From a virus: a DNA stretch of 23,327 nt. Each line of letters begins with the position of its first letter. Position 1 is the first letter of the stretch. The notes below the pieces were generated by a model. That model was not told the origin of the DNA, searched no databases, and was given only the letters and a program-made list of their open reading frames with translations. Where the stretch lies: the IMG/VR virus record IMGVR_UViG_3300029705_000088. One strand, 5' to 3'. This document shows, in pieces, positions 2,291-14,607 of this stretch. The position numbers and the translations under genes are program-made.

Positions 2291-2440
2291 AACAATTTGT
2301 TCATATTCTGTTCACAATTTGTTCATACATTTTTGTTCATATTTTGTTCACAATTTGTTCATAAAATTTTTTTAAAAAATTTACAATTGTGGGCGCCCGC
2401 TCGTTTCCGGGCGTTTACCACCCGAAACGAGCGGTATTTC
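2284..2440. repeat. Inverted-orientation iteron copies (ttgttcacaatttgttcata, at least 4 copies) plus a GC-rich hairpin island (2391-2440)
   Basis: The reverse complement of the 560-860 motif is repeated here. The stem ccgctcgtttc/gaaacgagcgg is visible. Confidence 0.75.
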
Positions 2441-2564
2441 TAATGGCCACCTAATTCCGCATTTTTTATGGCAAAAACTGGATAATTCGCATATGTTTCC
2501 CATTTCCTGAAACTACCAATAGGCCAGTTCACAGAAACTTCACAATCTATTTACAGAATATTCA

Positions 2565-2593
2565 TTGACATTTTTATTAAAATATGATATAAT
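2565..2593 (+). promoter_or_regulatory. Sigma70-type promoter (attgacatttttattaaaatatgatataat variant)
   Basis: ttgaca at 2565-2570 and tataat at 2588-2593, 17 bp apart. Confidence 0.8.
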
Positions 2594-2639
2594 ATATATA
2601 CAGTAAAGGAAAGCCAATAGGCGACCAAAGAAAGGACAC

Positions 2640-2816
2640 ATGGAGATGAAAACTTATGCTTGCTCTGTTTATCACAAGAAATTTGGATGGGATGAATACT
2701 TCGTTAAAGCGAGTAATAAAGGTGAAGCGAAGAAAGAATGTATGTATCGCCTTGATAACGAGACCGATTATCCTGCCAAAGAATGGGAAATCGTGGATGT
2801 GGTAGAGGTCAAGTGA
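2640..2816 (+). CDS. Hypothetical small protein (58 aa, MEMKTYACSVYHKKFGWDEY...), absent from the ORF track because it is under 60 aa
   Basis: ATG at 2640 after the promoter and RBS aaaggacacATG. The ORF runs to TGA at 2814-2816. A perfect hairpin (gtagaggtca/tgacctctac) overlaps the stop. Confidence 0.55.
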   Translation: MEMKTYACSVYHKKFGWDEYFVKASNKGEAKKECMYRLDNETDYPAKEWEIVDVVEVK

Positions 2817-2860
2817 CCTCTACCTTGCGAAAAAAAATTTAAAAAATTTCGCAAAACCTC

Positions 2861-2889
2861 TTGACAAACGACCGGAAATGTGATATAAT
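2861..2889 (+). promoter_or_regulatory. Sigma70-type promoter with upstream TTTCGCAAAACC element
   Basis: ttgaca at 2861-2866 and tgatataat at 2881-2889. Confidence 0.8.
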
Positions 2890-2938
2890 ATATATACAGA
2901 GGAACCCAAGAGGTTCCAAGAGAAAGGAAGTAAAAACT

Positions 2939-3405
2939 ATGTTACCTAAGATGATTTGCTTTGACATGGACGGCACCCTCGCAGACCTTTACAACGTGCC
3001 CAACTGGCTTGAACAGCTTCGTGCGTTTGACCCTGCCCCGTATCGGGAAGCAGAATGTATGTGGGATGAAGAGGAGCTTGCTTGCATCCTGAATACGCTG
3101 ATTGATAACGGCGTTGAAATTCGCATTATCACTTGGCTGTCAAAGGAAAGCACTCCCGAGTATGATGAAGCGGTACGCGAAGCGAAGCGAGAATGGCTTG
3201 AAGCCCTCGGCATTCCTTACACTCACTTCCACGGTGTAAAGTATGGCGCGACTAAGGCTGACAGCATCCGCAGATACCTTGAAGAGGACGAAACCGCTTG
3301 CTCTTTGATGACAATGAAAAGGTTCGCAAGGGCTGGCACATGGGCGAAGCGTTTGACCCGACCGCGATTGATATTCTTGAATTACTGTATGCGCTCTTGG
3401 ATTGA
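2939..3405 (+). CDS. HAD-superfamily 5'(3')-deoxyribonucleotidase-like phosphatase (NT5C family); the reading frame is interrupted by a -1 shift near 3283-3294
   Basis: The product begins MLPKMICFDMDGTLADL, which is HAD motif I (DxDGT). GATKAD supplies the motif III lysine. The motif IV stretch LLFDDNEKVRKGW lies in the -1 frame and ends at TGA 3403-3405. The listed frame instead runs on to 3436 as non-homologous sequence. Confidence 0.7.
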
Positions 3406-3453
3406 GCGCATACAGGTAAATTCAAAAAAGTTTTAATACAGGAAAGAAATAGC

Positions 3454-3645
3454 ATGGAAGAAAATATTCAGTTTAAACGTTTTCAAGCAATTATTGACCC
3501 AAAATCTATTGATATCCCAATTTTTAAATGTGAAGAATGTCCATTAAATGATAAATGCCATGATGAAAAACGCATAGATGATTTTGAGCATACTTGCATA
3601 GAAGCTATCTGGCATTATATTCAAACTGGTGAATTCTTGGCATAA
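3454..3645 (+). CDS. Hypothetical small Cys/His-containing protein (63 aa)
   Basis: RBS aggaaagaaatagcATG. No promoter of its own, so it is probably co-transcribed with the upstream gene. Confidence 0.6.
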   Translation: MEENIQFKRFQAIIDPKSIDIPIFKCEECPLNDKCHDEKRIDDFEHTCIEAIWHYIQTGEFLA

Positions 3646-3677
3646 AAAATTTTTTTCAAAAAATTTCGCAAAACCTC

Positions 3678-3706
3678 TTGACAAACACCGCAAAGTATGA
3701 TATAAT
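3678..3706 (+). promoter_or_regulatory. Sigma70-type promoter with TTTCGCAAAACC element
   Basis: ttgaca at 3678-3683 and tataat at 3701-3706. Confidence 0.8.
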
Positions 3707-3762
3707 ATATATACAGAGGAAATCCGGAAGCCCAAAAGAACGGAAGAAAGAGAGAAAACAAA

Positions 3763-4035
3763 ATGCCTACTGGTAGATTTAATGAAGTTGAAGAGAATGT
3801 TGTTCTGATGGAAGTCACCGCCGAAGAGCTTAAACTTATCATTGAAAGAAGAAAAAAAGAAATTACACGCGATAATTATATGGAAGAATTTAATGATTTA
3901 ATTTCTCGGGCAAGAAAAGATGGTATTTTCTTCTGCGTTCAACGTGGAAGAGTTGCTAACGGAACAAGACTGTTTGAAGAAGATGGTCCAGAATCATATA
4001 CAGATAGATTGAATAATATTCGTATCACCTATTAA
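3763..4035 (+). CDS. Hypothetical protein (90 aa)
   Basis: Conserved leader, the same as the 1528 gene, followed by ATG at 3763. Confidence 0.7.
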   Translation: MPTGRFNEVEENVVLMEVTAEELKLIIERRKKEITRDNYMEEFNDLISRARKDGIFFCVQRGRVANGTRLFEEDGPESYTDRLNNIRITY

Positions 4036-4065
4036 ATAAAAGCCGCCTTTGGGCGGTTTTTTATT
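4036..4065 (+). terminator. Intrinsic terminator (aagccgcc ttt gggcggtttttt)
   Basis: GC stem followed by a T-run. Confidence 0.75.
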
Positions 4066-4160
4066 TCAATTTCAATTTTTGTTTCCATTTTTTGGATTCA
4101 TTTTTTCATTTCAATTCATATTTTGTTTTCATTTTATTTACAAATTTTGACTTGACTTTT

Positions 4161-4196
4161 GGGCCGGCCGCCCGCGCTCCAAGCGGCCGGTTTTTG
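4161..4196. terminator. GC-rich hairpin (gggccggccgcccgcgctccaagcggccgg) plus a T-run. It is a homologue of the 531-560 hairpin and is followed by iteron copies.
   Basis: ccggccgc/gcggccgg stem. gaacaaattgtgaa copies lie at 4195-4252. Confidence 0.6.
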
Positions 4197-4308
4197 AACA
4201 AATTGTGAATTTCAATACTTTTTTGTAAGCATTTTGTAAACAAATTGTGAAGGGAAATTTTCCCAAAATGTTTGTGCAATTTGACGAAAGATTTTTTTCA
4301 AAAACCTA

Positions 4309-4337
4309 TTGACTTTTGGCTTGATATGTGGTATAAT
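4309..4337 (+). promoter_or_regulatory. Sigma70-type promoter
   Basis: ttgact at 4309-4314 and tgtggtataat ending at 4337, 17 bp apart. Confidence 0.8.
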
Positions 4338-4371
4338 ATATATACAGAAAAGAAAGAGAGGTACATCACAA

Positions 4372-4575
4372 ATGACTAACACTAAAATTTATTTTGAGGT
4401 AGAAATTGAGGGCGTAGTAACCCAATTCAATAATTTCAATGATGCCCGTGATGAGTATAACGCGCTCATGGAATGCGGTTTCTACGAAGCCACCCTTCAC
4501 AGAGTAGAAGAAGTCAATGGCGACAAATACATAGTAGTATGGAATGACAGAAGTGCTTGCTTTTTCCCCCGCTAA
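4372..4575 (+). CDS. Hypothetical small protein (67 aa)
   Basis: ATG at 4372 with RBS aaagagagg. Confidence 0.65.
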   Translation: MTNTKIYFEVEIEGVVTQFNNFNDARDEYNALMECGFYEATLHRVEEVNGDKYIVVWNDRSACFFPR

Positions 4576-4604
4576 AAATCTTTAAAAAACTTTCGCAAAA
4601 CCCC

Positions 4605-4633
4605 TTGACAAATCGCTCAAAGTATGATATAAT
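4605..4633 (+). promoter_or_regulatory. Sigma70-type promoter (canonical class-A copy aaaaccccttgacaaatcgctcaaagtatgatataat)
   Basis: ttgaca at 4605-4610 and tataat at 4628-4633. Confidence 0.85.
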
Positions 4634-4675
4634 ATATATACCCCCGATACAGGGGGTAGAAAGAGAGATAGACCA

Positions 4676-5380
4676 ATGAACACAGAAAAGATTGACCGCC
4701 GCAGACATTACATTATCGTGCTTGACACGGAAACCGCAAACACCTTCCGCGATGAAAGAGGACAGCTTGACACAAGTAGTACACTTGTGTATGACCTTGG
4801 GTGGGCGGTAACTGATAAGCATGGAAACATCTACCGCAAAAAGAGTTTTGTAAATTCTGATATTTTCTTCCATGAAGCTGAACTGATGAAGTCGGCATAC
4901 TACGCAAATAAAATCCCGCAGTATCTCGCAGACATTGAAGCGGGTAGGCGCATTGTGGCTAATACCTATCAAATGCGCTCGGCTCTGCTGAATGATATCG
5001 CAGATTTCGCAGTTGATACAATTTGCGCGCATAACGCCCGTTTTGACTACAACAGCCTAAACAGCACAGAGCGCTGGACTACAAAAAGCAAGTACCGCTA
5101 TTTTCTCCCTTATGGAATTACAATTTGGGACAGTATGAAGATGGCGCAAAGTGTAATCGGAAAGATGCCCACCTACCGCGCATTTTGTGAAGAACATGGT
5201 TATCTGACAAAAACTGGCAGACTTTCCATGACAGCGGAAAATCTTTACAGATTCATTTCCCGCAATAATGATTTTGTTGAAAATCATACAGGGCTTGAAG
5301 ATGTGGAAATTGAAGCGCAGATAATGGCGTACTGTTTCAGACAACACAAGGCAATGCAGAAAGAGTTATGGGGGAATTAA
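4676..5380 (+). CDS. DnaQ-like DEDDh 3'-5' exonuclease (234 aa)
   Basis: Exo I is IIVLDTETAN, Exo II is AHNARFDYNSL, and Exo III is HTGLEDVEIEAQ. The leader hairpin ccccc gataca ggggg lies at 4641-4656. Confidence 0.75.
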   Translation: MNTEKIDRRRHYIIVLDTETANTFRDERGQLDTSSTLVYDLGWAVTDKHGNIYRKKSFVNSDIFFHEAELMKSAYYANKIPQYLADIEAGRRIVANTYQMRSALLNDIADFAVDTICAHNARFDYNSLNSTERWTTKSKYRYFLPYGITIWDSMKMAQSVIGKMPTYRAFCEEHGYLTKTGRLSMTAENLYRFISRNNDFVENHTGLEDVEIEAQIMAYCFRQHKAMQKELWGN

Positions 5381-5429
5381 TCCCCCATGACTACCGCAAA
5401 AAAAACTTTAAGAAATTTCGCAAAACCCC

Positions 5430-5458
5430 TTGACAAAACCGCAAAAGTATGATATAAT
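5430..5458 (+). promoter_or_regulatory. Sigma70-type promoter driving the tRNA-like gene
   Basis: ttgaca at 5430-5435 and tataat at 5453-5458. Confidence 0.8.
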
Positions 5459-5498
5459 ATATATACAGAAGAGAGGAACAAATCCTCCCCGATAATAT

Positions 5499-5605
5499 GG
5501 CAGTGAGATAGAAGCGGCTCTATTTCCATAAAGATGGCTTGAGATACAACAAATGGAAACGTTCGCCATTGGAAAACGTAGGTTCAACTCCTACCACTGC
5601 CTCCA
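5499..5605 (+). tRNA. tRNA-like gene, non-canonical length (107 nt). It has a 7-bp acceptor stem, a canonical T-arm and 3' CCA, but the middle part does not fold into a standard anticodon arm.
   Basis: ggcagtg at 5499-5505 pairs with cactgcc at 5595-5601. The T-arm gtagg-ttcaact-cctac is at 5578-5594, the discriminator t is at 5602, and CCA is at 5603-5605. A D-arm-like atag aagcggct ctat is present. I could not place a 7-nt anticodon loop with U33, nor find a CUA anticodon. Confidence 0.45.
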
Positions 5606-5636
5606 AAAAATTTTTCAAAAACTTTTGCAAAACCCC

Positions 5637-5665
5637 TTGACAAATCGCTCAAAGTATGATATAAT
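5637..5665 (+). promoter_or_regulatory. Sigma70-type promoter (class-A copy)
   Basis: ttgaca at 5637-5642 and tataat at 5660-5665. Confidence 0.85.
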
Positions 5666-5749
5666 ATATATACCGAAGCAAGAGGGCACGACCTCCAATC
5701 GGTAAAATAAAAATAATGGGTAGCGACCTACGCTGAAAGGATTGATACC

Positions 5750-6139
5750 ATGGCTACTACTAACTCTACTTCCAAGAAGCTCACTAAGCGCGACCACTTC
5801 AACACCCTGCTCCAGCTCCCCGAAGTTGCCGCAAATCCCGCACTCGTTGATTTCATCAACAACGAACTTGACCTGCTGGCTCGCAAGAACAACAGCGACA
5901 ACAAGAAGCTCACTGAAAAGGACATCGCAAATCAGGGGCTTAAGGCGGCGATTCTTGAATTCGCAACCGCGAGCGGCGAACAGCACACTGTTACCGACTT
6001 CATCAAGAACGTGCCTGCGTGCGCTGGACTTTCTCCGCAGAAGATTACCGCACTGGTTCGCCAGATGGTAGAAGATGGCAAGCTTGAAAAGGTAATCGTA
6101 AAGCGCGTATCTTACTTCCGCATTCCGGAGGGGGTTTAA
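5750..6139 (+). CDS. Hypothetical protein (129 aa), cassette A gene 1, with a possible C-terminal winged helix
   Basis: An 80-nt structured leader ends ...gctgaaaggattgataccATG. Codon usage is rich in C-ending codons. It is a paralogue of 9851..10249. Confidence 0.8.
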   Translation: MATTNSTSKKLTKRDHFNTLLQLPEVAANPALVDFINNELDLLARKNNSDNKKLTEKDIANQGLKAAILEFATASGEQHTVTDFIKNVPACAGLSPQKITALVRQMVEDGKLEKVIVKRVSYFRIPEGV

Positions 6140-6170
6140 TCCCCCTCCCCCAAGAGGGGGGACGTAATCC

Positions 6171-6527
6171 ATGAGCGAACAGGAAAAAGCAATGCGGCGG
6201 CTCGGCTTTACAGATGAAGAAATCGCCGACGTAATGGACGCAGATAAGCGCATTGACAAGGGCGAAAAACTATTTGAGCAGACCGCCGAAGAAAAGAACG
6301 CAAGTAAAGAATTGCGGCGAGCACCGCGCAAAGTCGTTGACGCATACGGCAAAGCAAGCACCAAGGAACGCAAAAGCGACAACGACAAGCAAGCACTAAT
6401 CAAAGGCATTGAAATGGCAATTTTTGACAAAGTGGAAAATCTTACCATTATCAATCCCGAACGTGAAATGGAGTTTCTTTACAATGGTAGAAAATTCAAG
6501 TTGACTCTATCTGCTCCCCGAAAGTAA
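6171..6527 (+). CDS. Hypothetical protein (118 aa), cassette A gene 2
   Basis: ATG at 6171 after the stacked hairpins gaggggg/ccccctc and ccccc aagag ggggg. It is a paralogue of 10285..10692. Confidence 0.75.
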   Translation: MSEQEKAMRRLGFTDEEIADVMDADKRIDKGEKLFEQTAEEKNASKELRRAPRKVVDAYGKASTKERKSDNDKQALIKGIEMAIFDKVENLTIINPEREMEFLYNGRKFKLTLSAPRK

Positions 6528-6537
6528 ATATTTTCCA

Positions 6538-6570
6538 AAATGCATATTACAAATGTAATATGCATTTTTG
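6538..6570. promoter_or_regulatory. Perfect AT-rich palindrome (aaaatgcatattaca aa tgtaatatgcatttt), a candidate operator or terminator
   Basis: The 15-bp arms are exact reverse complements. Confidence 0.5.
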
Positions 6571-6589
6571 TTTATTTTGACGAAAATTT

Positions 6590-6790
6590 CCAGTTCACAA
6601 ATTGTTTACAAAATATACTTGATTTGTTCAAACGCGCGTCGCCGATGGTGGCGCGCGTTTTTTTTGTCAATAGGTAATGTATACAAATTTTCAGAAAATT
6701 TTTGGGCGTTTTTAGTCAATTCATACAAATCCCGCAATTATGAACATTTTGTAAACAATAAAGAAAACCTATTGACTTTTTTATTATAAT
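6590..6790. repeat. About 190-bp intergenic repeat element, copy 1 (tttacaaaatatacttgatttgttcaaac, a GC hairpin with T-run terminator at 6631-6668, then ...caaatcccgcaattatgaacattttgtaaa...)
   Basis: Close similarity to 11150..11340. The GC hairpin aaacgcgcg...cgcgcgttttttttt is visible. Confidence 0.8.
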
Positions 6791-6800
6791 ATGATATAAT
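6772..6800 (+). promoter_or_regulatory. Sigma70-type promoter
   Basis: ttgact at 6772-6777 and tgatataat ending at 6800, 17 bp apart. Confidence 0.8.
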
Positions 6801-6845
6801 ATATATACAGAAAACAAAGAGCCAACAGGCAAAGGAGATAAAACA

Positions 6846-7277
6846 ATGAAAAATATTTACGCTGTTAAGAATTACGTCCGCTTTGATGATGAATGGGAAG
6901 AAATTTTTGTGTGGGATTACAATTATGAGTATCTCACCCCCGAAGAAGCAAAAACCTTTGAAGATACTTTCCGCACGACCTGCCGCACGTTTGAGGAACT
7001 GCGCGAAGAGGTAGACAGATTCCCCGGTATCAAAGAAAATTATACCTTTTTCCGGCGCAGTCCTTACATCCGTGTGCAGGGTTCTGATTGGGATAGCTAT
7101 GGCAAATATTATGATGAAAAGCATTTCAAGAAGCCTATTAGCTTCAAGAAGGTCTGTAAAAGAGTTAATAACCTTTCCATTAATGATTTGATGAAAGTAT
7201 TAACTGCAGAAGATTTTGCAGACTGGTGGAAAGACCACGCAGGCGAAACGCAGTGCCCGTTCAAAAAGAATTCATAA
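6846..7277 (+). CDS. Hypothetical protein (143 aa)
   Basis: RBS aaaggagataaaacaATG. Confidence 0.8.
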   Translation: MKNIYAVKNYVRFDDEWEEIFVWDYNYEYLTPEEAKTFEDTFRTTCRTFEELREEVDRFPGIKENYTFFRRSPYIRVQGSDWDSYGKYYDEKHFKKPISFKKVCKRVNNLSINDLMKVLTAEDFADWWKDHAGETQCPFKKNS

Positions 7278-7296
7278 AATAAATACAAATTATACA

Positions 7297-7325
7297 TTGA
7301 CTTTCTCTCTTGGATGTGGTATAAT
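7297..7325 (+). promoter_or_regulatory. Sigma70-type promoter
   Basis: ttgact at 7297-7302 and tgtggtataat ending at 7325. Confidence 0.8.
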
Positions 7326-7367
7326 ATATATACCCTCCAAGAGAGAGGGTAGAAAGAGGTAAAACAA

Positions 7368-7604
7368 ATGAGAGTTGAGGACATGAGAAATAAGGACAAA
7401 GAGGTAACAATTAAAGACATTAAAGTCGGTGAATGCTTCATTGACTGTGATGGCGATTTAAATATGAAAATAAAAAATATTGAATCTTTTGATTATGAAT
7501 CTATTAATGCTGTAGTGCTTTTAACTGGTCAACTGTGGGCTTGTGATGAAGATAGCCCTATAACTCCAGTAAAAACGCACATTGTAATTGAATCGGAGGG
7601 ATAA
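7368..7604 (+). CDS. Hypothetical protein (78 aa)
   Basis: Leader hairpin ccctc caagaga gaggg at 7333-7349. RBS agaaagaggtaaaacaaATG. Confidence 0.7.
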   Translation: MRVEDMRNKDKEVTIKDIKVGECFIDCDGDLNMKIKNIESFDYESINAVVLLTGQLWACDEDSPITPVKTHIVIESEG

Positions 7605-7610
7605 AAAAAA

Positions 7611-8084
7611 ATGAATATTTTAATTTTTGCAATCGCTACTGTAATTAACGTATCACTTTCCACTATCCGCGCCATTACCACCATTAAAAGCGGTAAATGG
7701 CTGTCCGCTGTGATGAATGCGGTTTGTTATGGTTTCTATCCTCTGATTGTCATGCTGACCGCGCAAGGCACCGTAGGCATTTTGGTGAATATGGCAATTA
7801 CTGCCATCGCAAATTTCATCTGCGTATGGATTATTAAGTTTGTAGAGGAAAAGGCGCGTAAAGATAAACTCTGGAAGATTGAAGCATCTGTGTGTGAGCC
7901 TTACACCGAAAGCCTTTATAATGACTTAAGAGAAAATGGAATTTCTTGTAATTATATTCCCAACATTGGTAAATATACCATTTTCAACATTTACGCAGAA
8001 ACGCAAGCGCAAAGCCTTATTGTAAAAGGACTGCTTGAAGCCAACAAAGCAAAGTATTTTGTGAGCGAAACAAAAATTCTTTAA
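7611..8084 (+). CDS. Membrane protein, UPF0316/DUF2179-like (157 aa). It has N-terminal TM helices and a soluble C-terminal domain.
   Basis: RBS ggagggataaaaaaaaATG. The hydrophobic N-terminus carries a TIR motif, and the layout resembles the UPF0316 (YebE-type) family. This family assignment is recalled from memory and is not a verified similarity. Confidence 0.6.
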   Translation: MNILIFAIATVINVSLSTIRAITTIKSGKWLSAVMNAVCYGFYPLIVMLTAQGTVGILVNMAITAIANFICVWIIKFVEEKARKDKLWKIEASVCEPYTESLYNDLRENGISCNYIPNIGKYTIFNIYAETQAQSLIVKGLLEANKAKYFVSETKIL

Positions 8085-8103
8085 AAAACTTTCGCAAAAC
8101 CTA

Positions 8104-8132
8104 TTGACAAATTCAAAAAAGTGTGGTATAAT
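8104..8132 (+). promoter_or_regulatory. Sigma70-type promoter with TTTCGCAAAACC element
   Basis: ttgaca at 8104-8109 and tgtggtataat at 8122-8132. Confidence 0.8.
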
Positions 8133-8174
8133 ATATACATCCCCGATACAGGGGATAGAAAGGAATAAAACAAA

Positions 8175-8498
8175 ATGAAACTTGGTATTATTTTAGCAAA
8201 ACGTAAAATGGATGAAGAAGATACTGGACATCGCATCATTAAAATTGAAACAAACAATAATGATTTCAAACAGATTATTGATAAATCAATATATATAAAT
8301 AAACATTATAAAGAAACAGATGTTGTGACACGTAGAAAAACTTTTGATAAATTGTGTGATTTACTGGATGAAATTGTTAAACCATATTGTAAAGCAGATG
8401 AAGCAGTTATTTTTGCTTGTACAGCAGATGGTTATGCATTTATTTATGATGATGAAGATTTGGTAAATGAAACAATGAAATATATTTTTAATGAATAA
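8175..8498 (+). CDS. Hypothetical protein (107 aa)
   Basis: Leader hairpin atcccc gataca ggggat at 8139-8156. RBS aaaggaataaaacaaaATG. Confidence 0.7.
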   Translation: MKLGIILAKRKMDEEDTGHRIIKIETNNNDFKQIIDKSIYINKHYKETDVVTRRKTFDKLCDLLDEIVKPYCKADEAVIFACTADGYAFIYDDEDLVNETMKYIFNE

Positions 8499-8515
8499 AA
8501 ATTTTACTAAATCCC

Positions 8516-8544
8516 TTGACAAATAAGCAAAAGTGTGGTATAAT
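8516..8544 (+). promoter_or_regulatory. Sigma70-type promoter
   Basis: ttgaca at 8516-8521 and tgtggtataat ending at 8544. Confidence 0.8.
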
Positions 8545-8591
8545 AATAGTACCCCAATACAGGGGGCACTAAAAGAGAGAGGTAAAATAAA

Positions 8592-8849
8592 ATGACAAGA
8601 ATTGTAAAGCAAATGAAAATGGCAAAAATTTATGTTCCCGCTTGTTATGTTGATGGTGGACAAGGCTCTCGTGGCAACTGGACAAAAGAGACAATTTTTT
8701 ATACGGGTGCTTACACCAGCGAAACAGATATGCAGGAAAAATTTATTAAAGCAAAAGAAGAATGGGATAAAAAGAAAAAAGAATCGTGGGATACTTATTA
8801 TACAGAAGTAAAACTTATAGATTGGTGGGAAAATGTAGAAATTTTGTAA
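8592..8849 (+). CDS. Hypothetical protein (85 aa)
   Basis: Leader hairpin cccc aatacag ggggg. RBS agagaggtaaaataaaATG. Confidence 0.7.
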   Translation: MTRIVKQMKMAKIYVPACYVDGGQGSRGNWTKETIFYTGAYTSETDMQEKFIKAKEEWDKKKKESWDTYYTEVKLIDWWENVEIL

Positions 8850-8855
8850 AACCCC

Positions 8856-8884
8856 TTGACAAATCCGAAGAAATGTGATATAAT
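8856..8884 (+). promoter_or_regulatory. Sigma70-type promoter overlapping the end of the upstream CDS
   Basis: ttgaca at 8856-8861 and tgtgatataat ending at 8884. Confidence 0.8.
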
Positions 8885-8926
8885 AATAGTACCCCCAATA
8901 AAGGGGGGAGAAAGAGGTAAAATAAA

Positions 8927-9160
8927 ATGAAAGTTGCTGTTACACTTTATCGCACGATTGAAATGGATGTAAATGAAGAAGTTTTTGAAAGACTTCATGA
9001 AATCCATAAAGACCCTACCACTTTTGGAGAAGATGAAGATTATTCCGAAGCAAAAGAAATTATCACAAACAGACTGCTGGCACGCTGTGAACTTCATAAT
9101 GGTGAAGAAATTATCGGCGTGTATGCGGCGGAAGATGATATTCCGATTCTTGAATTTTAA
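8927..9160 (+). CDS. Hypothetical acidic small protein (77 aa)
   Basis: Leader hairpin ccccc aataaa gggggg. RBS agaaagaggtaaaataaaATG. Confidence 0.7.
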   Translation: MKVAVTLYRTIEMDVNEEVFERLHEIHKDPTTFGEDEDYSEAKEIITNRLLARCELHNGEEIIGVYAAEDDIPILEF

Positions 9161-9163
9161 TAA

Positions 9164-9200
9164 GGAGAGGGCGCAAGCCCCTCTCTTTCTTTTACTTTTG
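9164..9200 (+). terminator. Intrinsic terminator (ggagaggg cgcaag cccctctc followed by tttcttttactttt)
   Basis: GC stem followed by a T-run. Confidence 0.75.
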
Positions 9201-9472
9201 GCATTCATAATTTATTTACAAATTATTTATAAAAAACACTTGACTTTTGAGTCGCCCGCGGCCGGAGGTCACGGGCGAAATTTTGTCAAGAGATATCGTA
9301 TAAAAAAATTGTAAACATTTTATTAACAATCAAGTGAATTAGCCGTTTTCCCGTAATAAAAAATTAACAAATGAACATAGACTCGTTCACATATTATACC
9401 ATTACCAAAAATTGACAATCTGACTTGTTCTTGGATATTGAAAAAATTTTTTGAGAAATTTTGAAAAACCTC

Positions 9473-9501
9473 TTGACAAAAACGTGATTGTGTGGTATAA
9501 T
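9473..9501 (+). promoter_or_regulatory. Sigma70-type promoter with no ORF downstream (first of three tandem promoters)
   Basis: ttgaca at 9473-9478 and tgtggtataat at 9491-9501. Confidence 0.75.
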
Positions 9502-9579
9502 ATATATGTACCAAACAAAAGGATGCGCGGGGACGCCGAAAGCCACTCAAAAAAATTTGAAAAACTTTTCAAAAACCCC

Positions 9580-9608
9580 TTGACAAATCGCTCAAAGTAT
9601 GGTATAAT
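9580..9608 (+). promoter_or_regulatory. Sigma70-type promoter (class-A copy) driving an ORF-less structured transcript
   Basis: ttgaca at 9580-9585 and tataat at 9603-9608. Confidence 0.8.
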
Positions 9609-9614
9609 ATATAT

Positions 9615-9720
9615 GTCAGGGGCGAGGGTGAGTAAAACCTCGTAAAAAATCTCCTCATCAAGTGAAGTCCAAAATGCGATAAATTGACTTCAAATCTTGA
9701 TAGTATCGCAAAAAATTTTT
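9615..9720 (+). ncRNA. Candidate small non-coding RNA (about 105 nt): a 5' hairpin plus an H-type pseudoknot, ending in AAAAAATTTTT
   Basis: There is no ORF beyond a 10-codon one. The 5' hairpin is cgagg...cctcg (9623-9642). The pseudoknot has S1 at 9657-9669 paired with 9686-9701, and S2 tgcgata (9675-9681) paired with tatcgca (9704-9710), interleaved. Confidence 0.4.
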
Positions 9721-9741
9721 GAAAAACTTTTCAAAAACCCC

Positions 9742-9770
9742 TTGACAAATACCATAAAGTATGGTATAAT
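9742..9770 (+). promoter_or_regulatory. Sigma70-type promoter for cassette B
   Basis: ttgaca at 9742-9747 and tataat at 9765-9770. Confidence 0.8.
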
Positions 9771-9850
9771 ATATATACCGGGTGAGGGAAACCTACCACG
9801 GCAAACAAATTAAAAGGTTGGCAACCTAAACAGCTGAAAGGATTGATACC

Positions 9851-10249
9851 ATGGCTAACACTAATTCTACTCTCAACGCTACCGCAAAGAAGCTCACCAA
9901 GCGTGACCACTTCAACGCCCTCCTCGCTATCCCCTCTGTAGCATCTAACCCCACGCTCGTTGAATTCATTGAAAATGAGCTTGACCTACTGGCTCGTAAG
10001 AACGCTAAGCCGTCTGGCAAGCAGATGGAAAAGAAGGAAGCAAACGATGCGCTGAAGCAGGCAATGCTTGACTACCTCGCAAATGATGGCGGTCAGCACA
10101 CCGTTACTGACTTCATCAAGAATGTTCCCGAATGCGCTGGACTGTCCCAGCAGAGAATCACTGCGCTTGTCCGTCAGCTGGTAGAAGATGGCAAGATGGA
10201 AAAGGTGATTGAAAAGCGCGTTTCCTACTTCAAGCTGGCAGAGGTTTAA
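9851..10249 (+). CDS. Hypothetical protein (132 aa), cassette B gene 1, paralogue of 5750..6139
   Basis: The same structured leader ending gctgaaaggattgataccATG. About 60% identity to the cassette A protein by eye. C-ending codon bias. Confidence 0.8.
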   Translation: MANTNSTLNATAKKLTKRDHFNALLAIPSVASNPTLVEFIENELDLLARKNAKPSGKQMEKKEANDALKQAMLDYLANDGGQHTVTDFIKNVPECAGLSQQRITALVRQLVEDGKMEKVIEKRVSYFKLAEV

Positions 10250-10284
10250 TCCTCTGCCACGCCTAACCAAAAGAGGTGATGAAG

Positions 10285-10692
10285 ATGGAACTGACCCGAG
10301 CCGACAAAGCGCAAGTCAAGCGAATTCAAGAGGGCTTGCGCTGTACCGAAGAAGAAGCTCTTGAGGTTTTGTCCTATGACAAGGAAGTTGAGAAGGCTTC
10401 CGCTAATGACAGGCTGGCGTACGACCTTGACAAGGAGACAGAGAAGGAAGCGATGCGTATGGCTAACTGCCGCGACCGCAAGCCTACTGTTTACAATTTC
10501 TCCCAGCGTGAGCGCAAGGCAAATCCCACAAAGGGCGGAATAATCGCAGAATTGGCGGAGTTTTTGACAAAAAACAGTCAGTTTGCGACCGAAGATGTGG
10601 AAATTACCAACAAAGAACGGCAAATTGCGTTCAAAATTGGTGAAGATGCCTTTGAATTGACGCTTGTTCAGAAGCGAAAGCCCAAAAAGTAA
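10285..10692 (+). CDS. Hypothetical protein (about 136 aa), cassette B gene 2, paralogue of 6171..6527
   Basis: RBS aagagg. Candidate ATGs lie at 10279 and 10285; the track uses GTG at 10276. Confidence 0.7.
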   Translation: MELTRADKAQVKRIQEGLRCTEEEALEVLSYDKEVEKASANDRLAYDLDKETEKEAMRMANCRDRKPTVYNFSQRERKANPTKGGIIAELAEFLTKNSQFATEDVEITNKERQIAFKIGEDAFELTLVQKRKPKK

Positions 10693-10694
10693 AG

Positions 10695-10724
10695 AAAAGT
10701 GGGAATTTTTCCCACTTTTCACTT
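10695..10724 (+). terminator. Intrinsic terminator (aaaagtggga atttt tcccactttt)
   Basis: 10-bp stem followed by a T-run. Confidence 0.7.
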
Positions 10725-10749
10725 AAATTTTAGTCAAAAAGATGCAAAA

Positions 10750-11097
10750 ATGGCAGAAAAAGAGTTTCTTTATGTGGGTTTTTACCACGATACCGACAAA
10801 AATTTTGTTCTAAAGATTGGAACAACTAACGACCTAAAGCGCAGACAGGCAGAGCACACGCGCAATTATAGGAAAAGCCCTGAACACACAATGCCGCCAG
10901 ATGGCAAATTTACCTATTTATGGAAGCTGCCCCTTTCAAAATATAATACTCTGCGTTTTGAGGACAGAAACCGCCAAAAGTGGCAGGAAATGGGAATTGG
11001 TGAATATGTGCGGAACGACCGCTTTGTTCTCCATGAAATTCCACCACAGGTAGAAATTACCATCCGCAAAACTTATACAATCCCTCTACTGATGTAG
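10750..11097 (+). CDS. T5orf172/GIY-YIG-superfamily protein (115 aa), with no promoter of its own, inserted into copy B of the duplicated cassette
   Basis: FLYVGFYHDTDKNFVLKIGTTNDLKRRQAEH matches the GIY..YIG..R..H pattern and is paralogous to 1875..2240. The gene ends with TAG inside a terminator hairpin. Confidence 0.7.
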   Translation: MAEKEFLYVGFYHDTDKNFVLKIGTTNDLKRRQAEHTRNYRKSPEHTMPPDGKFTYLWKLPLSKYNTLRFEDRNRQKWQEMGIGEYVRNDRFVLHEIPPQVEITIRKTYTIPLLM

Positions 11098-11112
11098 AGG
11101 GATTTTCTTTTG
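11082..11112 (+). terminator. Intrinsic terminator (ccctctac tgat gtagaggg plus a T-rich tract) that contains the TAG stop
   Basis: Perfect 8-bp stem followed by attttcttttg. Confidence 0.65.
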
Positions 11113-11149
11113 TGCATAATGACGAAAATGCTGTGTTCATAATTTATTT

Positions 11150-11340
11150 ACAAAATATACTTGATTTGTTCAAACGCCCGCGACCGGAGGCCACGGGCGT
11201 TATTTTGTCAAGTGGTAATCTATACAAATTTTCAGAAATTTTTTTAACATTTTTGTACAAACCGCACAAATCCCGCAATTATGAACATTTTGTAAATAAA
11301 CAAGAATATCTATTGACATTTTTATAAAAATATGATATAA
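11150..11340. repeat. About 190-bp intergenic repeat element, copy 2 (homologue of 6590..6790)
   Basis: The same tttacaaaatatacttgatttgttcaaacgc, a GC hairpin (gcccgcgaccggaggccacgggcg), and ...caaatcccgcaattatgaacattttgtaaa. Confidence 0.8.
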
Positions 11341-11341
11341 T
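11313..11341 (+). promoter_or_regulatory. Sigma70-type promoter
   Basis: ttgaca at 11313-11318 and tgatataat ending at 11341. Confidence 0.8.
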
Positions 11342-11381
11342 ATATATACAGTAAAGAACCAACAGAAAGAGAGCAAATAAA

Positions 11382-11579
11382 ATGGATATGTGGATGAGCG
11401 ACCTTTTAGAAGCTACCGCAAGAGTAAAAGTACATAAAGGAAAAAATTTCTGTATCAAGTCTGCCCTTCCTGCGGTTGATGGCATTGTATTTGAAACTAC
11501 TTACTTCACTTACATTAAATGGTATCGCGCAGATGGACGCATTGAAGAACATTCTAAAGACGCATGGAGGAATAAATAA
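11382..11579 (+). CDS. Hypothetical protein (65 aa)
   Basis: RBS agagagcaaataaaATG. Confidence 0.65.
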   Translation: MDMWMSDLLEATARVKVHKGKNFCIKSALPAVDGIVFETTYFTYIKWYRADGRIEEHSKDAWRNK

Positions 11580-11580
11580 A

Positions 11581-11808
11581 ATGAATACACTTGTAATCAG
11601 CGAAAAGTTGATTGAATACTTTGAGCAGGAAGTAAAAGACGCAGAAAGAGCGCTTGAACGCAATCTTTACACGCCCCTTGAAATCGTAGATAACGCAAAA
11701 CAGCGAATGCTTGGAGCGACTACTCTGTGCCAGTATCTTGGTATTGAATATTTGTTCCTTGAAGCAAACTATGAAGCATACACAAAAAAACTTGAAAAAC
11801 TTTTATAA
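11581..11808 (+). CDS. Hypothetical protein (75 aa)
   Basis: ATG at 11581, in frame within the 11476..11808 ORF. RBS aggaataaataaaATG, with the stop and start adjacent. Confidence 0.65.
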   Translation: MNTLVISEKLIEYFEQEVKDAERALERNLYTPLEIVDNAKQRMLGATTLCQYLGIEYLFLEANYEAYTKKLEKLL

Positions 11809-11814
11809 AACCCC

Positions 11815-11843
11815 TTGACAAATCGCGCAAAGTATGGTATAAT
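11815..11843 (+). promoter_or_regulatory. Sigma70-type promoter (class-A copy)
   Basis: ttgaca at 11815-11820 and tataat at 11838-11843. Confidence 0.85.
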
Positions 11844-11887
11844 AATAGTACCCCCCAGAGAGGGGGGGAGAAAGAGAGTAAAATAAA

Positions 11888-12295
11888 ATGGAAAAAGTAA
11901 TGTATTTTATCGCAGAAGATGGCACGCAGTTTGAAGATGAATTTGACTGCGTACAGTATGAAGAAGAACTCCACATTAAGCAGGTGTTTGAACCTTTCTC
12001 CTGTTATGATATCAATGGACATCTTCTTGACACTAATGACGAGCATTTTGAATCCGATGATGTATATTATATTCTTGTAAAAGAAGATAATTACGAAGAT
12101 GGAAGTTATATGGAGCTGGATGATTTTATTTTTGATGGTGAATTACCTGCTCTTAGCCATGTTTTCAAAGATACTGATACCACGTTGATTTATTTCAATC
12201 GTAATTCTGACACTTGGGAAAACTGGCACGAAGAATTCAACAGGCTTACTGAAATGATGAAAATGTTTCAACTGTTTGCGGGGAAGGGCGAGTAA
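11888..12295 (+). CDS. Very acidic hypothetical protein (135 aa), a candidate DNA-mimic or anti-restriction type
   Basis: Leader hairpin cccccc agaga ggggggg. D and E residues heavily outnumber K and R residues. Confidence 0.75.
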   Translation: MEKVMYFIAEDGTQFEDEFDCVQYEEELHIKQVFEPFSCYDINGHLLDTNDEHFESDDVYYILVKEDNYEDGSYMELDDFIFDGELPALSHVFKDTDTTLIYFNRNSDTWENWHEEFNRLTEMMKMFQLFAGKGE

Positions 12296-12319
12296 TCGCC
12301 CTTCATGGAGGTAAAGAAA

Positions 12320-12475
12320 ATGACTTGTAAAGAATGCGGCTACTGTTGGAAAGAAGAGTGCGAGAAATACGCCCATTGCCACTTTGAAGGCCCGGAAGGT
12401 TGGGCACCTTGTGAGCAGGAAGAAGAGTACGAAGAAGAAGAAGATGAGGAGGATGATGAAGATGAAGCCGAATGA
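12320..12475 (+). CDS. Cys-rich small protein with a poly-acidic tail (51 aa), absent from the ORF track because it is under 60 aa
   Basis: Strong RBS ggaggtaaagaaaATG. Product is MTCKECGYCWKEECEKYAHCHFEGPEGWAPCEQEEEYEEEEDEEDDEDEAE. TGA at 12473-12475. Confidence 0.55.
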   Translation: MTCKECGYCWKEECEKYAHCHFEGPEGWAPCEQEEEYEEEEDEEDDEDEAE

Positions 12476-12731
12476 AGAAACTTTACTTGATTTAATGAAC
12501 GAATACAATGCTTTGAAACAGAAGCTTGCTAACGTTGAAAGTGCTATTAAATCACATCAAAAACAGGGCGCTAAAGAGCAGTTACGAACAGCTTTTGCTA
12601 TTTTGGAAAAAATTAACAATGACAACATTTTTGGTGATGACGATTATTATTCTGATGATTTGAATGAATATATCAATTTAACAACCATTGTTAATTGCCT
12701 TGGTTCATTTATTGAAGAAGTGGTCAAATGA
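12456..12731 (+). CDS. Hypothetical coiled-coil protein (about 91 aa); the start is uncertain (12444 to 12462) and it overlaps the previous gene in another frame
   Basis: RBS gaggagga lies upstream of a cluster of ATGs. The ORF runs 12384..12731. Confidence 0.6.
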   Translation: MKMKPNEETLLDLMNEYNALKQKLANVESAIKSHQKQGAKEQLRTAFAILEKINNDNIFGDDDYYSDDLNEYINLTTIVNCLGSFIEEVVK

Positions 12732-13210
12732 CCACTTCTTTTTCGTTATTTTATACAAAAATAATTTGTTTACAAATTATGATAGATTTGTTCACATTTG
12801 CGCCGCCCGATTGCGCTCGCGCAGGGCGGGATTTCCATTTTTTACCATATTTACAAAATTTTGCGGCGATTTCCAGGATTTTCCAGTCCAGCCAGATTTT
12901 CCCATATTCTACACCTGTCAAGCGGTCCGGGCGCGGGCGCTGCGGACCGAGTTCCCGTTCGGACCCCCATATGCGAATTTTTTGCTACTTCTAGCGACCC
13001 TCAGCCTATATGCGCATTTTCCTATAATTCTAGTACCCCAGCCAGCCGACCGGAATTGTAAAATTTTTGTAAAAATTTTTGTAAAATTTTTATGAACGCG
13101 CGATTTCTCCAGAGATACGCCAGTGCTTATCTATTGAGAGCTACGGCTTAAATAAAGACCCTCTCCCTCACATTTACTCAAAAATTTTTTTGCGTGGCTT
13201 AAAATGCCGA
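12732..13210. repeat. About 480-bp non-coding island with a GC-rich core (12800-13060), several repeat families, and the boundary between the two promoter classes
   Basis: Tandem repeats of about 42 bp lie at 12965-13006 and 13007-13048. A triple tgtaaaattttt repeat lies at 13056-13095. Hairpins include cggtccg..cggaccg, and atttcc(a)g direct repeats are present. Confidence 0.7.
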
Positions 13211-13213
13211 AAT

Positions 13214-13242
13214 TTGACTTTTTTAAAAATTTATGATATAAT
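13214..13242 (+). promoter_or_regulatory. Sigma70-type promoter, class B (ttgactttttt aaaaatt tatgatataat)
   Basis: ttgact at 13214-13219 and tataat at 13237-13242. The promoter plus leader is about 60 bp and nearly identical to 16085-16145. Confidence 0.8.
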
Positions 13243-13274
13243 ATATATACAAAATAAAAAAAGGAGATAAAATT

Positions 13275-13721
13275 ATGAATTACAATTCTAATGACATTCT
13301 TAAGATGATTCAGGAGGGCAAATCTGTAGATGATATTGCCAAGGAATTCACCGCCGCACTGAACGAGGCAAAAAAGATTGACGAAGCCAAGAGAGCAGAG
13401 GCTAAGGAAGAAGAGGCTAGAAAGAAGGTCCAGGAGAGGGCAGATAAGATTGCGGACATGGGCAAGATGAAGGATGCTATCGCAGCCTACATTAAGCGCT
13501 GGTACCCCAACCTTGCCGCCCAGTATAAGGATATTGATATCACCGCAGAAGACCTTGTTGATTTGGTTGATGAAACTGTTGCGGAAATGCGCGAAGCATT
13601 CTCTATGTTTGGTAATTTTGCTCATATGCTGAAGCCTGGCAATGCTACCCTCTCAATTAAGACTGATAAGTCTAATTTGGATAATGTTTTTGATACTTTC
13701 TTTAAGAACAATGGTATTTAA
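13275..13721 (+). CDS. Hypothetical protein (148 aa) with high-expression-like codon usage
   Basis: Strong RBS aaaggagataaaattATG. C/G-ending codons are enriched relative to the neighbouring genes. Confidence 0.85.
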   Translation: MNYNSNDILKMIQEGKSVDDIAKEFTAALNEAKKIDEAKRAEAKEEEARKKVQERADKIADMGKMKDAIAAYIKRWYPNLAAQYKDIDITAEDLVDLVDETVAEMREAFSMFGNFAHMLKPGNATLSIKTDKSNLDNVFDTFFKNNGI

Positions 13722-13876: not shown

Positions 13877-14098
13877 AAGAAAGGATGAGGGATGACGATG
13901 ACGAGGGAAAAGTGATGAGTGTCTAGTGGAGCCGAACGGCACGACACCTCTCCAATTTTCGCAATTTTTATTACTTATTACTTTATTTACTTATTATTAT
14001 CTATATAATTATTATCTATTATCTATACAGTTGTTATCCATTATCAACCTATTACTTACTACCTACTACCTATTATCTATATTGTTACCTACCTACTA

Positions 14099-14299
14099 TC
14101 ACAACACCCAAATAACTCCCTGCCGCAACAACTTCCTTCTCTCCTTGCCAATCTCCTTAAACCTCTTCCTCTCCTCCGCCTCAAACCCTCTCAACAACCA
14201 ACATCCAAGAGCAGAAGAAAAAGAAACTCTTTTCAACACATACCTAACAACTGCGCCTAGCACCAAGCCAACTACTACACCTGCCGCGACCCCTATCAT
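14099..14299 (-). CDS. Small membrane protein (66 aa), the last gene of the minus-strand operon
   Basis: Its start overlaps the upstream stop as ATGA. It has an N-terminal hydrophobic helix and a basic C-terminus. Confidence 0.6.
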   Translation of the reverse strand: MIGVAAGVVVGLVLGAVVRYVLKRVSFSSALGCWLLRGFEAEERKRFKEIGKERRKLLRQGVIWVL

Positions 14300-14607
14300 A
14301 ACTTAACCTCTTTCAATTCCGCAAAAAACTTATCAACTACCGTACTATATTGACTAAAATAATTATCTTTTTCCTTTTCTTTCTCTTTCTTTAACTTTTC
14401 ATATACCCAACATTTATTGCTCCCAAACTCTTTAACTTTCATATCTAATCCTACTCTACCAACAACTTTACCTTTAAAAACTAACCACCTATCATCATCT
14501 TCAATAATAAAATAATTCTCTTTATCCTTATTCTTCTCATTCAAAAAATAATTATCTCTATCAATTAAATAAACATTTTTATAACCATACGTACCACAAT
14601 GCCTCAT
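14296..14607 (-). CDS. Hypothetical protein (103 aa)
   Basis: RBS aaaggtg precedes the ATG. The stop is TGA. Confidence 0.65.
   Translation of the reverse strand: MRHCGTYGYKNVYLIDRDNYFLNEKNKDKENYFIIEDDDRWLVFKGKVVGRVGLDMKVKEFGSNKCWVYEKLKKEKEKEKDNYFSQYSTVVDKFFAELKEVKL

Follow-up and report, generated by a model that had tools for sequence, protein, structure and literature searches.

A duplicated two-gene cassette in the predicted early region of an uncultured large phage, encoding a putative abundant winged-helix protein

The window analysed in this work, i.e. the whole 23,327-nt stretch of DNA of the IMG/VR virus record IMGVR_UViG_3300029705_000088, is phage-like and contains two homologous cassettes, A (5637-6817) and B (9742-11358), in which a consensus promoter, a leader, gene 1, gene 2 and a downstream repeat module follow each other in the same order. 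This arrangement, proposed in an initial annotation of the sequence, was confirmed by alignment of the regions 5590-6850 and 9695-11395 (Table 1). From the analyses described below we consider it probable, with considerable room for doubt, that gene 1, in an ancient cassette of the early region, gives rise to an early protein which is abundant, binds nucleic acid and has two specialised partners. The window would then carry two copies of an ancient expression cassette located in the early region of an uncultured large phage and transcribed by the host RNA polymerase; the host is probably a Firmicute and possibly a member of Clostridia. The product of gene 1 is predicted to bind nucleic acid, most likely DNA, and to be made in large amounts as soon as the cell is infected, and its role is best pictured as coating, organising or globally re-programming DNA. 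Gene 2 would be a less strongly expressed partner, present as one ancient type per cassette, and the two types probably specialise the system into two versions.

Several independent sequence features of gene 1 point to a very high output, namely an extended -10 promoter that fits the consensus perfectly, a hairpin near the 5' end followed by a covarying one that stops just short of the ribosome site, a ribosome site that is long and predicted to pair with the Firmicute 16S 3' tail at optimal spacing, a codon choice that looks strongly selected, a GC-rich hairpin where gene 1 stops, and two to three gene copies per genome. Such an investment suits a protein needed in stoichiometric amounts, which suggests that gene 1 may act stoichiometrically. 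The promoters predicted at the head of each cassette proved to match the sigma-70 consensus perfectly (Table 1). They belong to a set of 20 TTGACA-17-TATAAT sites with 11-12/12 matches, all TG-extended and all on the + strand of 1-13300 (42 weak matches were expected overall), which split into two repeat families, class A and class B (repeat families D1-D4). Small open reading frames (ORFs), mostly without a database match, stand between these promoters.

The codon usage of gene 1 is distinctive. The G+C content of third codon positions (GC3; 0.64 in copy A, 0.59 in copy B), the fraction C/(C+T) at two-fold pyrimidine codons (0.78 and 0.70) and the fraction G/(A+G) at two-fold purine codons (0.73 in both) are the highest or near highest among the ORFs of the window. 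For the pooled copies the effective number of codons (Nc) is 37.7, compared to 58.2 expected from the GC3 of synonymous codons (GC3s), which is 0.35 in the other early genes and 0.20 in the right half of the window. AAG excludes AAA completely (27:0), TTC, CAG, CAC and TAC likewise exclude their alternatives (9:0, 11:0, 4:0 and 3:0), and TTA, TTG, ATA, ACA, TCA and CAA do not occur, yet GAA is kept (15:3), as are GCT/GCA, GTT/GTA, ACT and TCT. Because Nc lies far under the GC3s expectation while GAA and the T/A-ending four-fold codons are retained, the bias is, to judge from these counts, a matter of codon-specific selection and not of simple GC enrichment. The difference from neighbouring genes noticed in the initial annotation thus stands after proper computation, goes beyond composition, and is conserved in relatives. 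The latter comprise 63 viral loci identified by a pattern search of IMG/VR, on contigs mostly of 100-200 kb, whose ORFs were searched with profiles. In most of them, i.e. in dozens of phages with background GC3 from 0.31 to 0.63, the bias is specific to gene 1, whereas gene 2 follows the background. For instance, in locus L001 the background values of GC3, C-ending codons and AAG are 0.31/0.26/0.24, compared to 0.66/0.77/1.00 and 0.69/0.96/1.00 in its gene 1 copies. A few AT-rich relatives, e.g. L056 and the group L057-L069, show little or none of this bias.

A preference for C-ending codons had also been attributed to the ORF at 13275-13721 (148 aa), where C/(C+T) turned out to be 0.31. Its bias is of another kind (Nc 41 vs 60 expected), with G-ending purine codons (0.71) and T-ending pyrimidine codons. 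This ORF (+) lies behind a class-B promoter and an AAAGGAG ribosome site (13214-13721), and its 66-nt unit of promoter and ribosome site recurs at 16085-16150 (+) with 92% identity. Comparison with hhalign rejected both this ORF as a paralogue of gene 1 and a relationship between gene 2 and gene 1 (pair probabilities 0.1 and 0.2).

The two gene 1 proteins share 85/126 identical residues (67%, E 1e-62), compared to about 60% estimated initially, and the common C-terminal motif reported for them is present in both. The AlphaFold2 model (pLDDT 82) comprises an N-terminal helical hairpin, which includes the most conserved motif of the family (KKLTKRDHFNTLL), a flexible linker, and a C-terminal winged helix, as had been suspected from the sequence. 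In this predicted structure the winged helix-turn-helix (wHTH) domain is a three-helix bundle followed by a beta-hairpin wing with the conserved residues K118/R119, and it superposes on solved wHTH domains. Nucleic-acid binding is favoured because of the winged helix, the basic wing, and the fusion of a gene 1-type winged helix with a HIRAN domain in another protein (P0352, 1078 aa). The same wHTH domain occurs as 2-4 tandem copies in metagenomic proteins of 340-1400 aa (P0260, P0261, P0306, P0352).

We compared gene 1 with the wHTH regulators MarR, PadR, ArsR, Fur and BlaI/MecI and with the wHTH domains of TFIIIC tau138 (eWH), Z-alpha, Rpc34 and Mnd1/Hop2. Known wHTH domains are 7-21% identical to it in sequence; the known wHTH regulators contain nothing equivalent to its N-terminal helical hairpin with KKLTKRDHF, and gene 1 has neither the sensor nor the dimerisation domain of these families. 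All Pfam matches of gene 1 are under the gathering thresholds (Mnd1 HTH, score: 20.9, threshold: 23.5; Rpc34, score: 17.1, threshold: 28.4; MarR_2, score: 12.9, threshold: 27), so that by this measure gene 1 is not a member of the MarR, PadR, ArsR, Penicillinase_R or Mnd1 families; NCBIfam returned nothing meaningful, and neither the profile nor the signature residues of the Z-alpha family were matched. For gene 1 and gene 2 alike, scans of Pfam, PHROGs, NCBIfam and PADLOC gave just sub-threshold or unnamed matches, and profile sequence searches of the PDB found nothing. Among 50,697 records of deposited phages, tblastn detected gene 1 in one unannotated faecal contig and gene 2 in none; DNA and protein searches of deposited phages revealed no cultured relatives. 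Metagenomes, on the other hand, contain 134 close homologues of gene 1, all of them unnamed, and the family as a whole comprises 4,234 clusters at 50% identity (profile search, E<=1e-3). The identical protein (P0001) is encoded on 24 metagenomic contigs, the longest of 186.5 kb.

The leaders, announced as about 80 nt long with a conserved end, measure 84 nt (A) and 80 nt (B) from the -10 hexamer to the ATG, and both finish with the identical 21-mer gctgaaaggattgataccATG. In both leaders, and also in five other transcripts, a hairpin starts ~6-7 nt past the -10 hexamer; that of leader B is unlike that of leader A in sequence and occupies the same place, and the analogous hairpins of other class-A transcripts of the window have z-scores from -2.2 to -4.3 (RNAfold). 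Three types of leader hairpin are mixed among the gene 1 copies of the relatives: the 5'-proximal type a, type b (GGGU-stem-ACCUA-stem, the type found in the window), and type c (stem-AAGGA(C/A)A-stem). The sequence of the type-b stem varies with complementarity kept in 11 distinct relatives (AGCG/CGCU, UGACG/CGUCA, CGUG/CACG, UUGCG/CGCAA, UCGC/GCGA; partner-permutation test: 0/5000). In type c the four inner pairs are kept in nearly all cases and 31 double-change cells were counted; the covariation score is 0.69, compared to 0.21 for shuffled data (0/500) and <=0.16 for slid-partner controls. AT-rich relatives have no leader hairpins and retain the ribosome site. A scan against Rfam, suggested as a check of the leaders, found no family: there was no match at E<=1 in 5666-5750 or 9771-9850 and none at the gathering score in 12 related loci.

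The ribosome-site consensus AGAAAGGAATTGATACYATG is present at 73 distinct gene 1 starts in the relatives, including those of proteins with no more than 30-45% identity. In our own alignment it matches 12/15 positions (AGAAAGGA + TGAT) of the complement of the Bacillus subtilis 16S 3' tail GAUCACCUCCUUUCU (PMC5732282). In the same alignment the spacing falls inside the optimal range of 15-21 nt (PMC5732282). In L036, L044 and L068 the ribosome site GAAAGGAATTGATACTATG precedes many different early genes, and therefore this group of phages appears to employ it as a translation element that can be reused. Since the leader elements are modular, the ribosome site serves other early genes, and no Rfam family is matched, the leaders give the impression of elements for stability and translation, not of a specific riboregulator. 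Among Gram-positive mRNAs, 5' stabiliser hairpins and extended Shine-Dalgarno (SD) elements are represented by STAB-SD and by the aprE and SP82 leaders. The leaders described here share with them a hairpin a few nucleotides from the predicted 5' end and an SD-like sequence (AAGGA in the type-c loop; the 8-nt AGAAAGGA site), and both would be expected to protect the mRNA and to recruit 30S subunits. They differ from these elements in their modular build, with three hairpin types mixed among copies, and in the conserved spacer TTGATAC after the SD, which lengthens the pairing to the 16S tail.

Nearly every related phage has two gene 1-gene 2 pairs, often with a third gene 1 without a partner (2-3 copies), and in the IMG/VR contigs the cassettes are internal; the finding of a duplicated cassette is thus more general than seen from the window alone. 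The tree of gene 2 consists of two clades, each with one copy from almost every phage (within-genome identity 0.35), and because of this split the duplication of the cassette, as read from the tree, predates the whole phage group. The suggestion that duplication and divergence of gene 2 reflect specialisation agrees with these two ancient, conserved types, although the duplication is not a recent one. The copies of gene 1, in contrast, cluster by genome, with an identity of 0.70 within and 0.46 between genomes, a pattern due for the most part to the C-terminal domain. The winged helix has a within-genome identity of 0.83 in the window and of 0.66-0.81 in five relatives, compared to 0.28-0.67 between distinct phages (0.50-0.62 for the nearest relative, L008), whereas the N-terminal domain has no by-genome pattern. 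Gene conversion or a shared lineage-specific target could make the winged helices alike within a genome and unlike between phages. Gene 1A and 1B differ with dS ~1.1 (saturated) and dN 0.24; recent gene conversion in this phage is rejected by this dS. The idea that the type of N-terminal domain tracks the type of the adjacent gene 2 was also rejected, as copy 1 of L009 stands beside an A-type gene 2 and its closest relative, copy 3 of L010, beside a B-type. Regarding the host, the names of metagenome-assembled genome (MAG) bins of the contigs are ambiguous (Clostridia three times, but also Treponema, Bacteroidales and Saccharibacteria) and give a weak hint of Clostridia.

Gene 2 is more divergent than gene 1, as initially stated: the two copies share 21/62 identical residues (34%, E 2e-4), restricted to the C-terminus, against 67% for gene 1, and nevertheless match one family profile along their length. 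There are more than 523 homologues. In the confident AlphaFold2 model (pLDDT 86) a basic linker stands between three helices and an alpha-beta3 unit. Codon bias is much lower than in gene 1 (Nc 50.7; GC3 0.48/0.55), and many relatives have a separate promoter for gene 2. The hairpin that spans the stop codon of gene 1 exhibits compensatory changes between A and B, and in most relatives examined a hairpin rich in GC and lacking a U-tract spans this stop codon or comes after it; with no U-tract, these hairpins do not qualify as intrinsic terminators.

Table 1. Positions of the elements of cassettes A and B in the window
Feature	Position	Strand	Description
A/T-rich tract upstream of promoter A	5605-5636		
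Promoter, cassette A	5637-5665	+	TTGACA, 17 nt, TG-n-TATAAT; 12/12 sigma-70 consensus, extended -10; promoter families D1-D3
5'-proximal hairpin, leader A	5672-5703	+	ACCGA...UCGGU, inner stem GAGG/CCUC; RNAfold minimum free energy and centroid structures
Type-b hairpin, leader A	5718-5734	+	GGGU, stem AGCG, loop ACCUA, stem CGCU; abuts the ribosome site
Translation-initiation region A	5732-5752	+	gctgaaaggattgataccATG, identical to the B copy
Gene 1, copy A	5750-6139	+	129 aa; predicted N-terminal helical hairpin and C-terminal winged helix
Hairpin(s) spanning the gene 1A stop	6127-6162	+	GGAGGGGG-TTTAAT-CCCCCTCC, then CCCCC-AAGA-GGGGGG; no U-tract; sequence and RNAfold
Gene 2, copy A	6171-6527	+	118 aa; g2_1 type
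AT-rich hairpin after gene 2A	6537-6568	+	Terminator-like
Downstream module A	6575-6817	+	Motif TTCACAAATTGTTTACAAA 6584-6630, terminator 6630-6668, spacer, class-B promoter 6772-6800
Promoter, cassette B	9742-9770	+	12/12 sigma-70 consensus, extended -10
5'-proximal hairpin, leader B	9778-9801	+	CCGGGU.GAGGGAAACCU.ACC.CGG; RNAfold
Type-b hairpin, leader B	9816-9836	+	GGUUGGC-AACCUAAACA-GCUG; weak, 2 Watson-Crick and 2 G-U pairs
Translation-initiation region B	9833-9853	+	Identical to the A copy
Gene 1, copy B	9851-10249	+	132 aa
Hairpin spanning the gene 1B stop	10237-10258	+	GGCAGAGG-TTTAAT-CCTCTGCC
Gene 2, copy B	10279-10692	+	137 aa from ATG 10279 or 135 aa from ATG 10285; g2_2 type
Palindromic hairpin after gene 2B	10694-10720	both	
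Extra ORF of cassette B	10750-11097	+	115 aa, T5orf172/GIY-YIG-like; insertion gap in the A/B alignment
Downstream module B	11117-11358	+	Motif 11124-11170, terminator hairpin ~11172-11207, spacer, class-B promoter 11313-11341

The weighing of this evidence has to take into account several points that speak against our interpretation or soften it. The recognition helix of gene 1 is, judging from its sequence, not notably basic, and winged helices also make protein-protein and RNA contacts, so that DNA binding is not assured. As to the structured leaders described initially, the stems do covary across phages, but the thermodynamic z-scores of the window's own two leaders are weak (-1.7 and -1.0, RNAfold), and the type-b hairpin of leader B is marginal. 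Unguided alignments of the leaders (MAFFT, RNAalifold) did not register the stems and recovered just an invariant 3-bp GGU/ACC stem; for this reason the hairpin alignments were made by hand, anchored on the conserved loops, a procedure that favours structure. The ribosome-site consensus is also found at other early genes in some relatives (22/95 distinct occurrences), which likewise weakens its candidacy as a gene 1-specific autoregulatory operator. Finally, gene conversion, if any, must be old because dS is saturated; either the homogenisation is old or the likeness of the gene 1 copies would reflect a shared lineage-specific constraint, and co-evolution is inseparable from conversion.

An unlikely alternative to a nucleic-acid-binding protein made in bulk is that gene 1 encodes an ordinary sequence-specific transcription regulator of the early-to-middle switch, present at a modest level, possibly autoregulated, and binding the lineage-specific AT-rich repeats dispersed over the early region. 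The winged-helix fold is typical of MarR, PadR, ArsR and Fur regulators, operator-like, 11-bp-phased TGTGAACAAATTGTAAAC repeats lie where early transcription units end, the beginnings of both downstream modules being among these places, and among the relatives the repeat motifs differ, as do the winged helices. However, regulators are usually of low abundance and rarely combine an Nc of 37.7 and full avoidance of AAA, TTT and CAA with multiple gene copies and maximal promoters and ribosome sites; moreover, no Pfam regulator family is reached at threshold, and the link between gene 1 and the repeats is a conjecture. We also regard as improbable the possibility that the gene 1 product stoichiometrically inhibits or hijacks some host protein that is abundant (a nucleoid protein, RNA polymerase, the ribosome or a defence factor), with the winged helix engaged in protein-protein contacts and with gene 2 types A and B addressing two different targets. 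High dosage would suit the titration of an abundant target, and host-takeover proteins of phage SPO1 of similar size are reported to act in this way, for instance Gp46 on HU and Gp44 on RNA polymerase (PMC6873191). Yet host targets are conserved, whereas the winged helix diverges between phages and is uniform within a genome; in one relative it is fused to the HIRAN DNA-binding domain, and PADLOC scans gave no anti-defence signal. Quite unlikely, in our estimate, is a more specific picture in which gene 1 is a phage 'chromatin' protein, made in bulk on entry and loading onto lineage-specific 11-bp-phased AT-rich TGTGAACAAATTGTAAAC arrays. In the window these arrays separate the early transcription units and stand at the head of each downstream module; the winged helices of all copies would co-evolve with the repeat motif of their own genome, which would explain why gene 1 copies are alike within a phage and different between phages; the two types of gene 2 would be alternative adaptors on the same DNA-bound scaffold.

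Two further explanations are poorly supported. Instead of translational selection, the odd composition could reflect the origin of the cassette, as a compositional island, from a source of higher GC, with later duplication, and indeed no part of the window is as rich in GC as the cassettes (0.46-0.51 vs 0.26-0.40), the GC3 of gene 2 is also somewhat raised, and cassette B includes an endonuclease-like mobile ORF. An origin of this kind is very unlikely given an Nc 20 units under the GC3s expectation, the codon-specific pattern, in which GAA, GCA/GCT, GTT/GTA and ACT are kept and TTA, TTG, ATA, ACA, TCA and CAA absent, the restriction of the bias to gene 1 across the range of backgrounds that gene 2 tracks in dozens of relatives, and the presence of the cassette in the ancestor of the whole group. 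The true element could also be a 279-aa antisense ORF (5615-6454, minus strand), which overlaps gene 1A and part of gene 2A and has similar counterparts in L001 and L003, or a structured regulatory RNA, i.e. a riboswitch-like leader, in line with the covarying hairpins. The antisense ORF, however, shares codon boundaries with gene 1 (both starts 2 mod 3) and is broken in cassette B; we reject it as a by-product of codon bias, since it stays open because gene 1A contains no TTA, CTA or TCA codons. The sense proteins, on the contrary, have large families, confident predicted folds and dN well under dS. The leaders match no Rfam family, and their hairpin types are swapped among copies and missing in the AT-rich relatives that retain the ribosome site. 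Altogether, this last explanation strikes us as extremely unlikely.

The predicted early region is reminiscent of SPO1's host-takeover module, in which the small early genes are equipped with promoters and ribosome sites of the sort typically seen at highly expressed genes (PMC6873191). Common to both would be small early genes that are densely arrayed in one direction, that each follow a strong host-type promoter and possess a strong ribosome site, and that are believed to be expressed at a high level right after infection of a Firmicute host (PMC6873191). Clustered small, predicted early genes with strong host-sigma promoters and strong SD sequences are what we found in the window. However, tblastn searches of the 50,697 phage records with gene 1 and gene 2 revealed no sequence homology to SPO1, gp37-gp60 included. 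The SPO1 module lies in the terminal redundancy of a linear genome; here, four assemblies end near position 1, but the homopolymers at 1-110 could break assemblies, and the cassettes of the relatives are internal. The SPO1 module is not known to hold a codon-optimised gene kept in 2-3 concerted copies. SPO1 also encodes TF1, an abundant DNA-coating (nucleoid) protein of the HU type and the product of a middle gene. Gene 1 resembles TF1 as a small, probably very abundant phage protein with a predicted nucleic-acid-binding fold, which is a winged helix and not HU/IHF, and it differs in timing, its promoters being of the host type. The resemblance is one of function and accords with the DNA-binding or nucleoid-remodelling role suggested in the initial annotation.

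The downstream modules comprise the previously reported 190-bp repeat, which does exist (6659-6817 vs 11200-11358, 159 nt, 84% identical; 6599-6643 vs 11141-11185, 87% identical) but is really a composite module of ~240 nt, parts of which recur at 502-546, 2523-2601, 7255-7333 and 12763-12807. Terminator A (6630-6660) has a stem of 14 pairs (9 GC) followed by TTTTTTTT and qualifies as an intrinsic terminator; the stem of terminator B is unlike that of A yet complementary, and is followed by TTATTTT. The 11-bp-phased AT-rich repeat TGTGAACAAATTGTAAAC and its variants were found at 420-850, 2281-2380, 4207-4251, 6584-6630, 9203-9247, 11124-11170 and 12763-12800, with a perfect 36-nt inverted repeat at 645-720 within the arrays; the smaller copies stand directly before GC-rich terminators at the ends of early units. 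The relatives have different motifs of the same style (AAATTTGTAAAAAC, AATTTGCAAAAA, TTGCACAAAA, AACACTTTAAAGC).

The cassettes are not collinear because cassette B contains an additional ORF between gene 2 and the downstream repeat (Table 1). Its product matches Pfam PF10544 (T5orf172) with 23.5 bits (cut-off: 20), over the first 44 of the 101 profile positions only. In L005, an otherwise near-identical contig, the ORF at this site has other coordinates and another length (130 aa); the insertion therefore seems to vary and may be mobile, and we consider an endonuclease-type mobile element probable. A second T5orf172-like ORF is located at 1875-2240 (+; 21.0 bits).

Upstream of cassette A there are a HAD-phosphatase-like ORF (2939-3436, +) and a DEDD/DnaQ-like exonuclease ORF (4676-5380, +; PHROG 20187, E 3e-45), which hold the upstream position also in relatives (L001 8464-9762, L003 7985-8659); a 157-aa membrane-protein-like ORF downstream of cassette A (7611-8084) is likewise conserved. 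Just upstream of cassette A, behind a promoter at 5430-5458, lies a tRNA-like element (5498-5602, +) with a 7-bp acceptor stem GGCAGUG/CACUGCC, a T-arm GGUUCAACUCC, an encoded CCA, and an anticodon arm of 41 nt, compared to 9 in a tRNA. It scores 29.4 bits with the Rfam tRNA model (gathering score: 29) and is not called by ARAGORN, which also misses the T-arm-like 3' ends present in some relatives. At the same relative position before cassette B there are dissimilar units: tandem perfect promoters (9473-9547 and 9580-9710, +) drive stretches of ~45 and ~100 nt with hairpins and no convincing ORF, and these short transcripts may be small RNAs. Searches with blastn found no match in the relatives for the tRNA-like element or for the short units upstream of cassette B. 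At the left end of the window there are homopolymer runs (G8, A18, A8, T8 and A24 at 1-110), and four independent assemblies (JGI and ENA) start within ~10 nt of position 1, which may be a genome end, a terminal-repeat boundary or a mere assembly break at the homopolymers. On the other side, in 14000-16100, the GC skew flips sharply (to -0.75), the GC content drops to 0.19-0.26, and small ORFs appear on the minus strand; a repeated motif ACTAACTATGAAAAATTACC occupies 15094-16063. This segment looks like the place where the one-directional early region gives way to another module.

Early phage genes that are strongly expressed and encode a common DNA-binding fold, which is how the sequence evidence leads us to classify the cassette, are an already known sort; the family is uncharacterised and the pattern of its concerted evolution is unusual. 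Gene 1 represents a very large family, to which Pfam, NCBIfam and PHROGs attach no function, and which appears to sit in the first-expressed region of widespread large uncultured phages of the animal gut. As probably one of the most heavily produced early proteins, it is a good candidate for learning how these phages take over their hosts. The contrast between gene 1 and gene 2 offers a clean case of domain-level concerted evolution in a phage, and the module of promoter, leader, ribosome site and hairpin may be of use as a strong expression cassette for Firmicutes. Should gene 1 indeed load onto the phased repeat arrays of its own genome, a large clade of uncultured gut phages would possess a nucleoprotein system that is directed by sequence.

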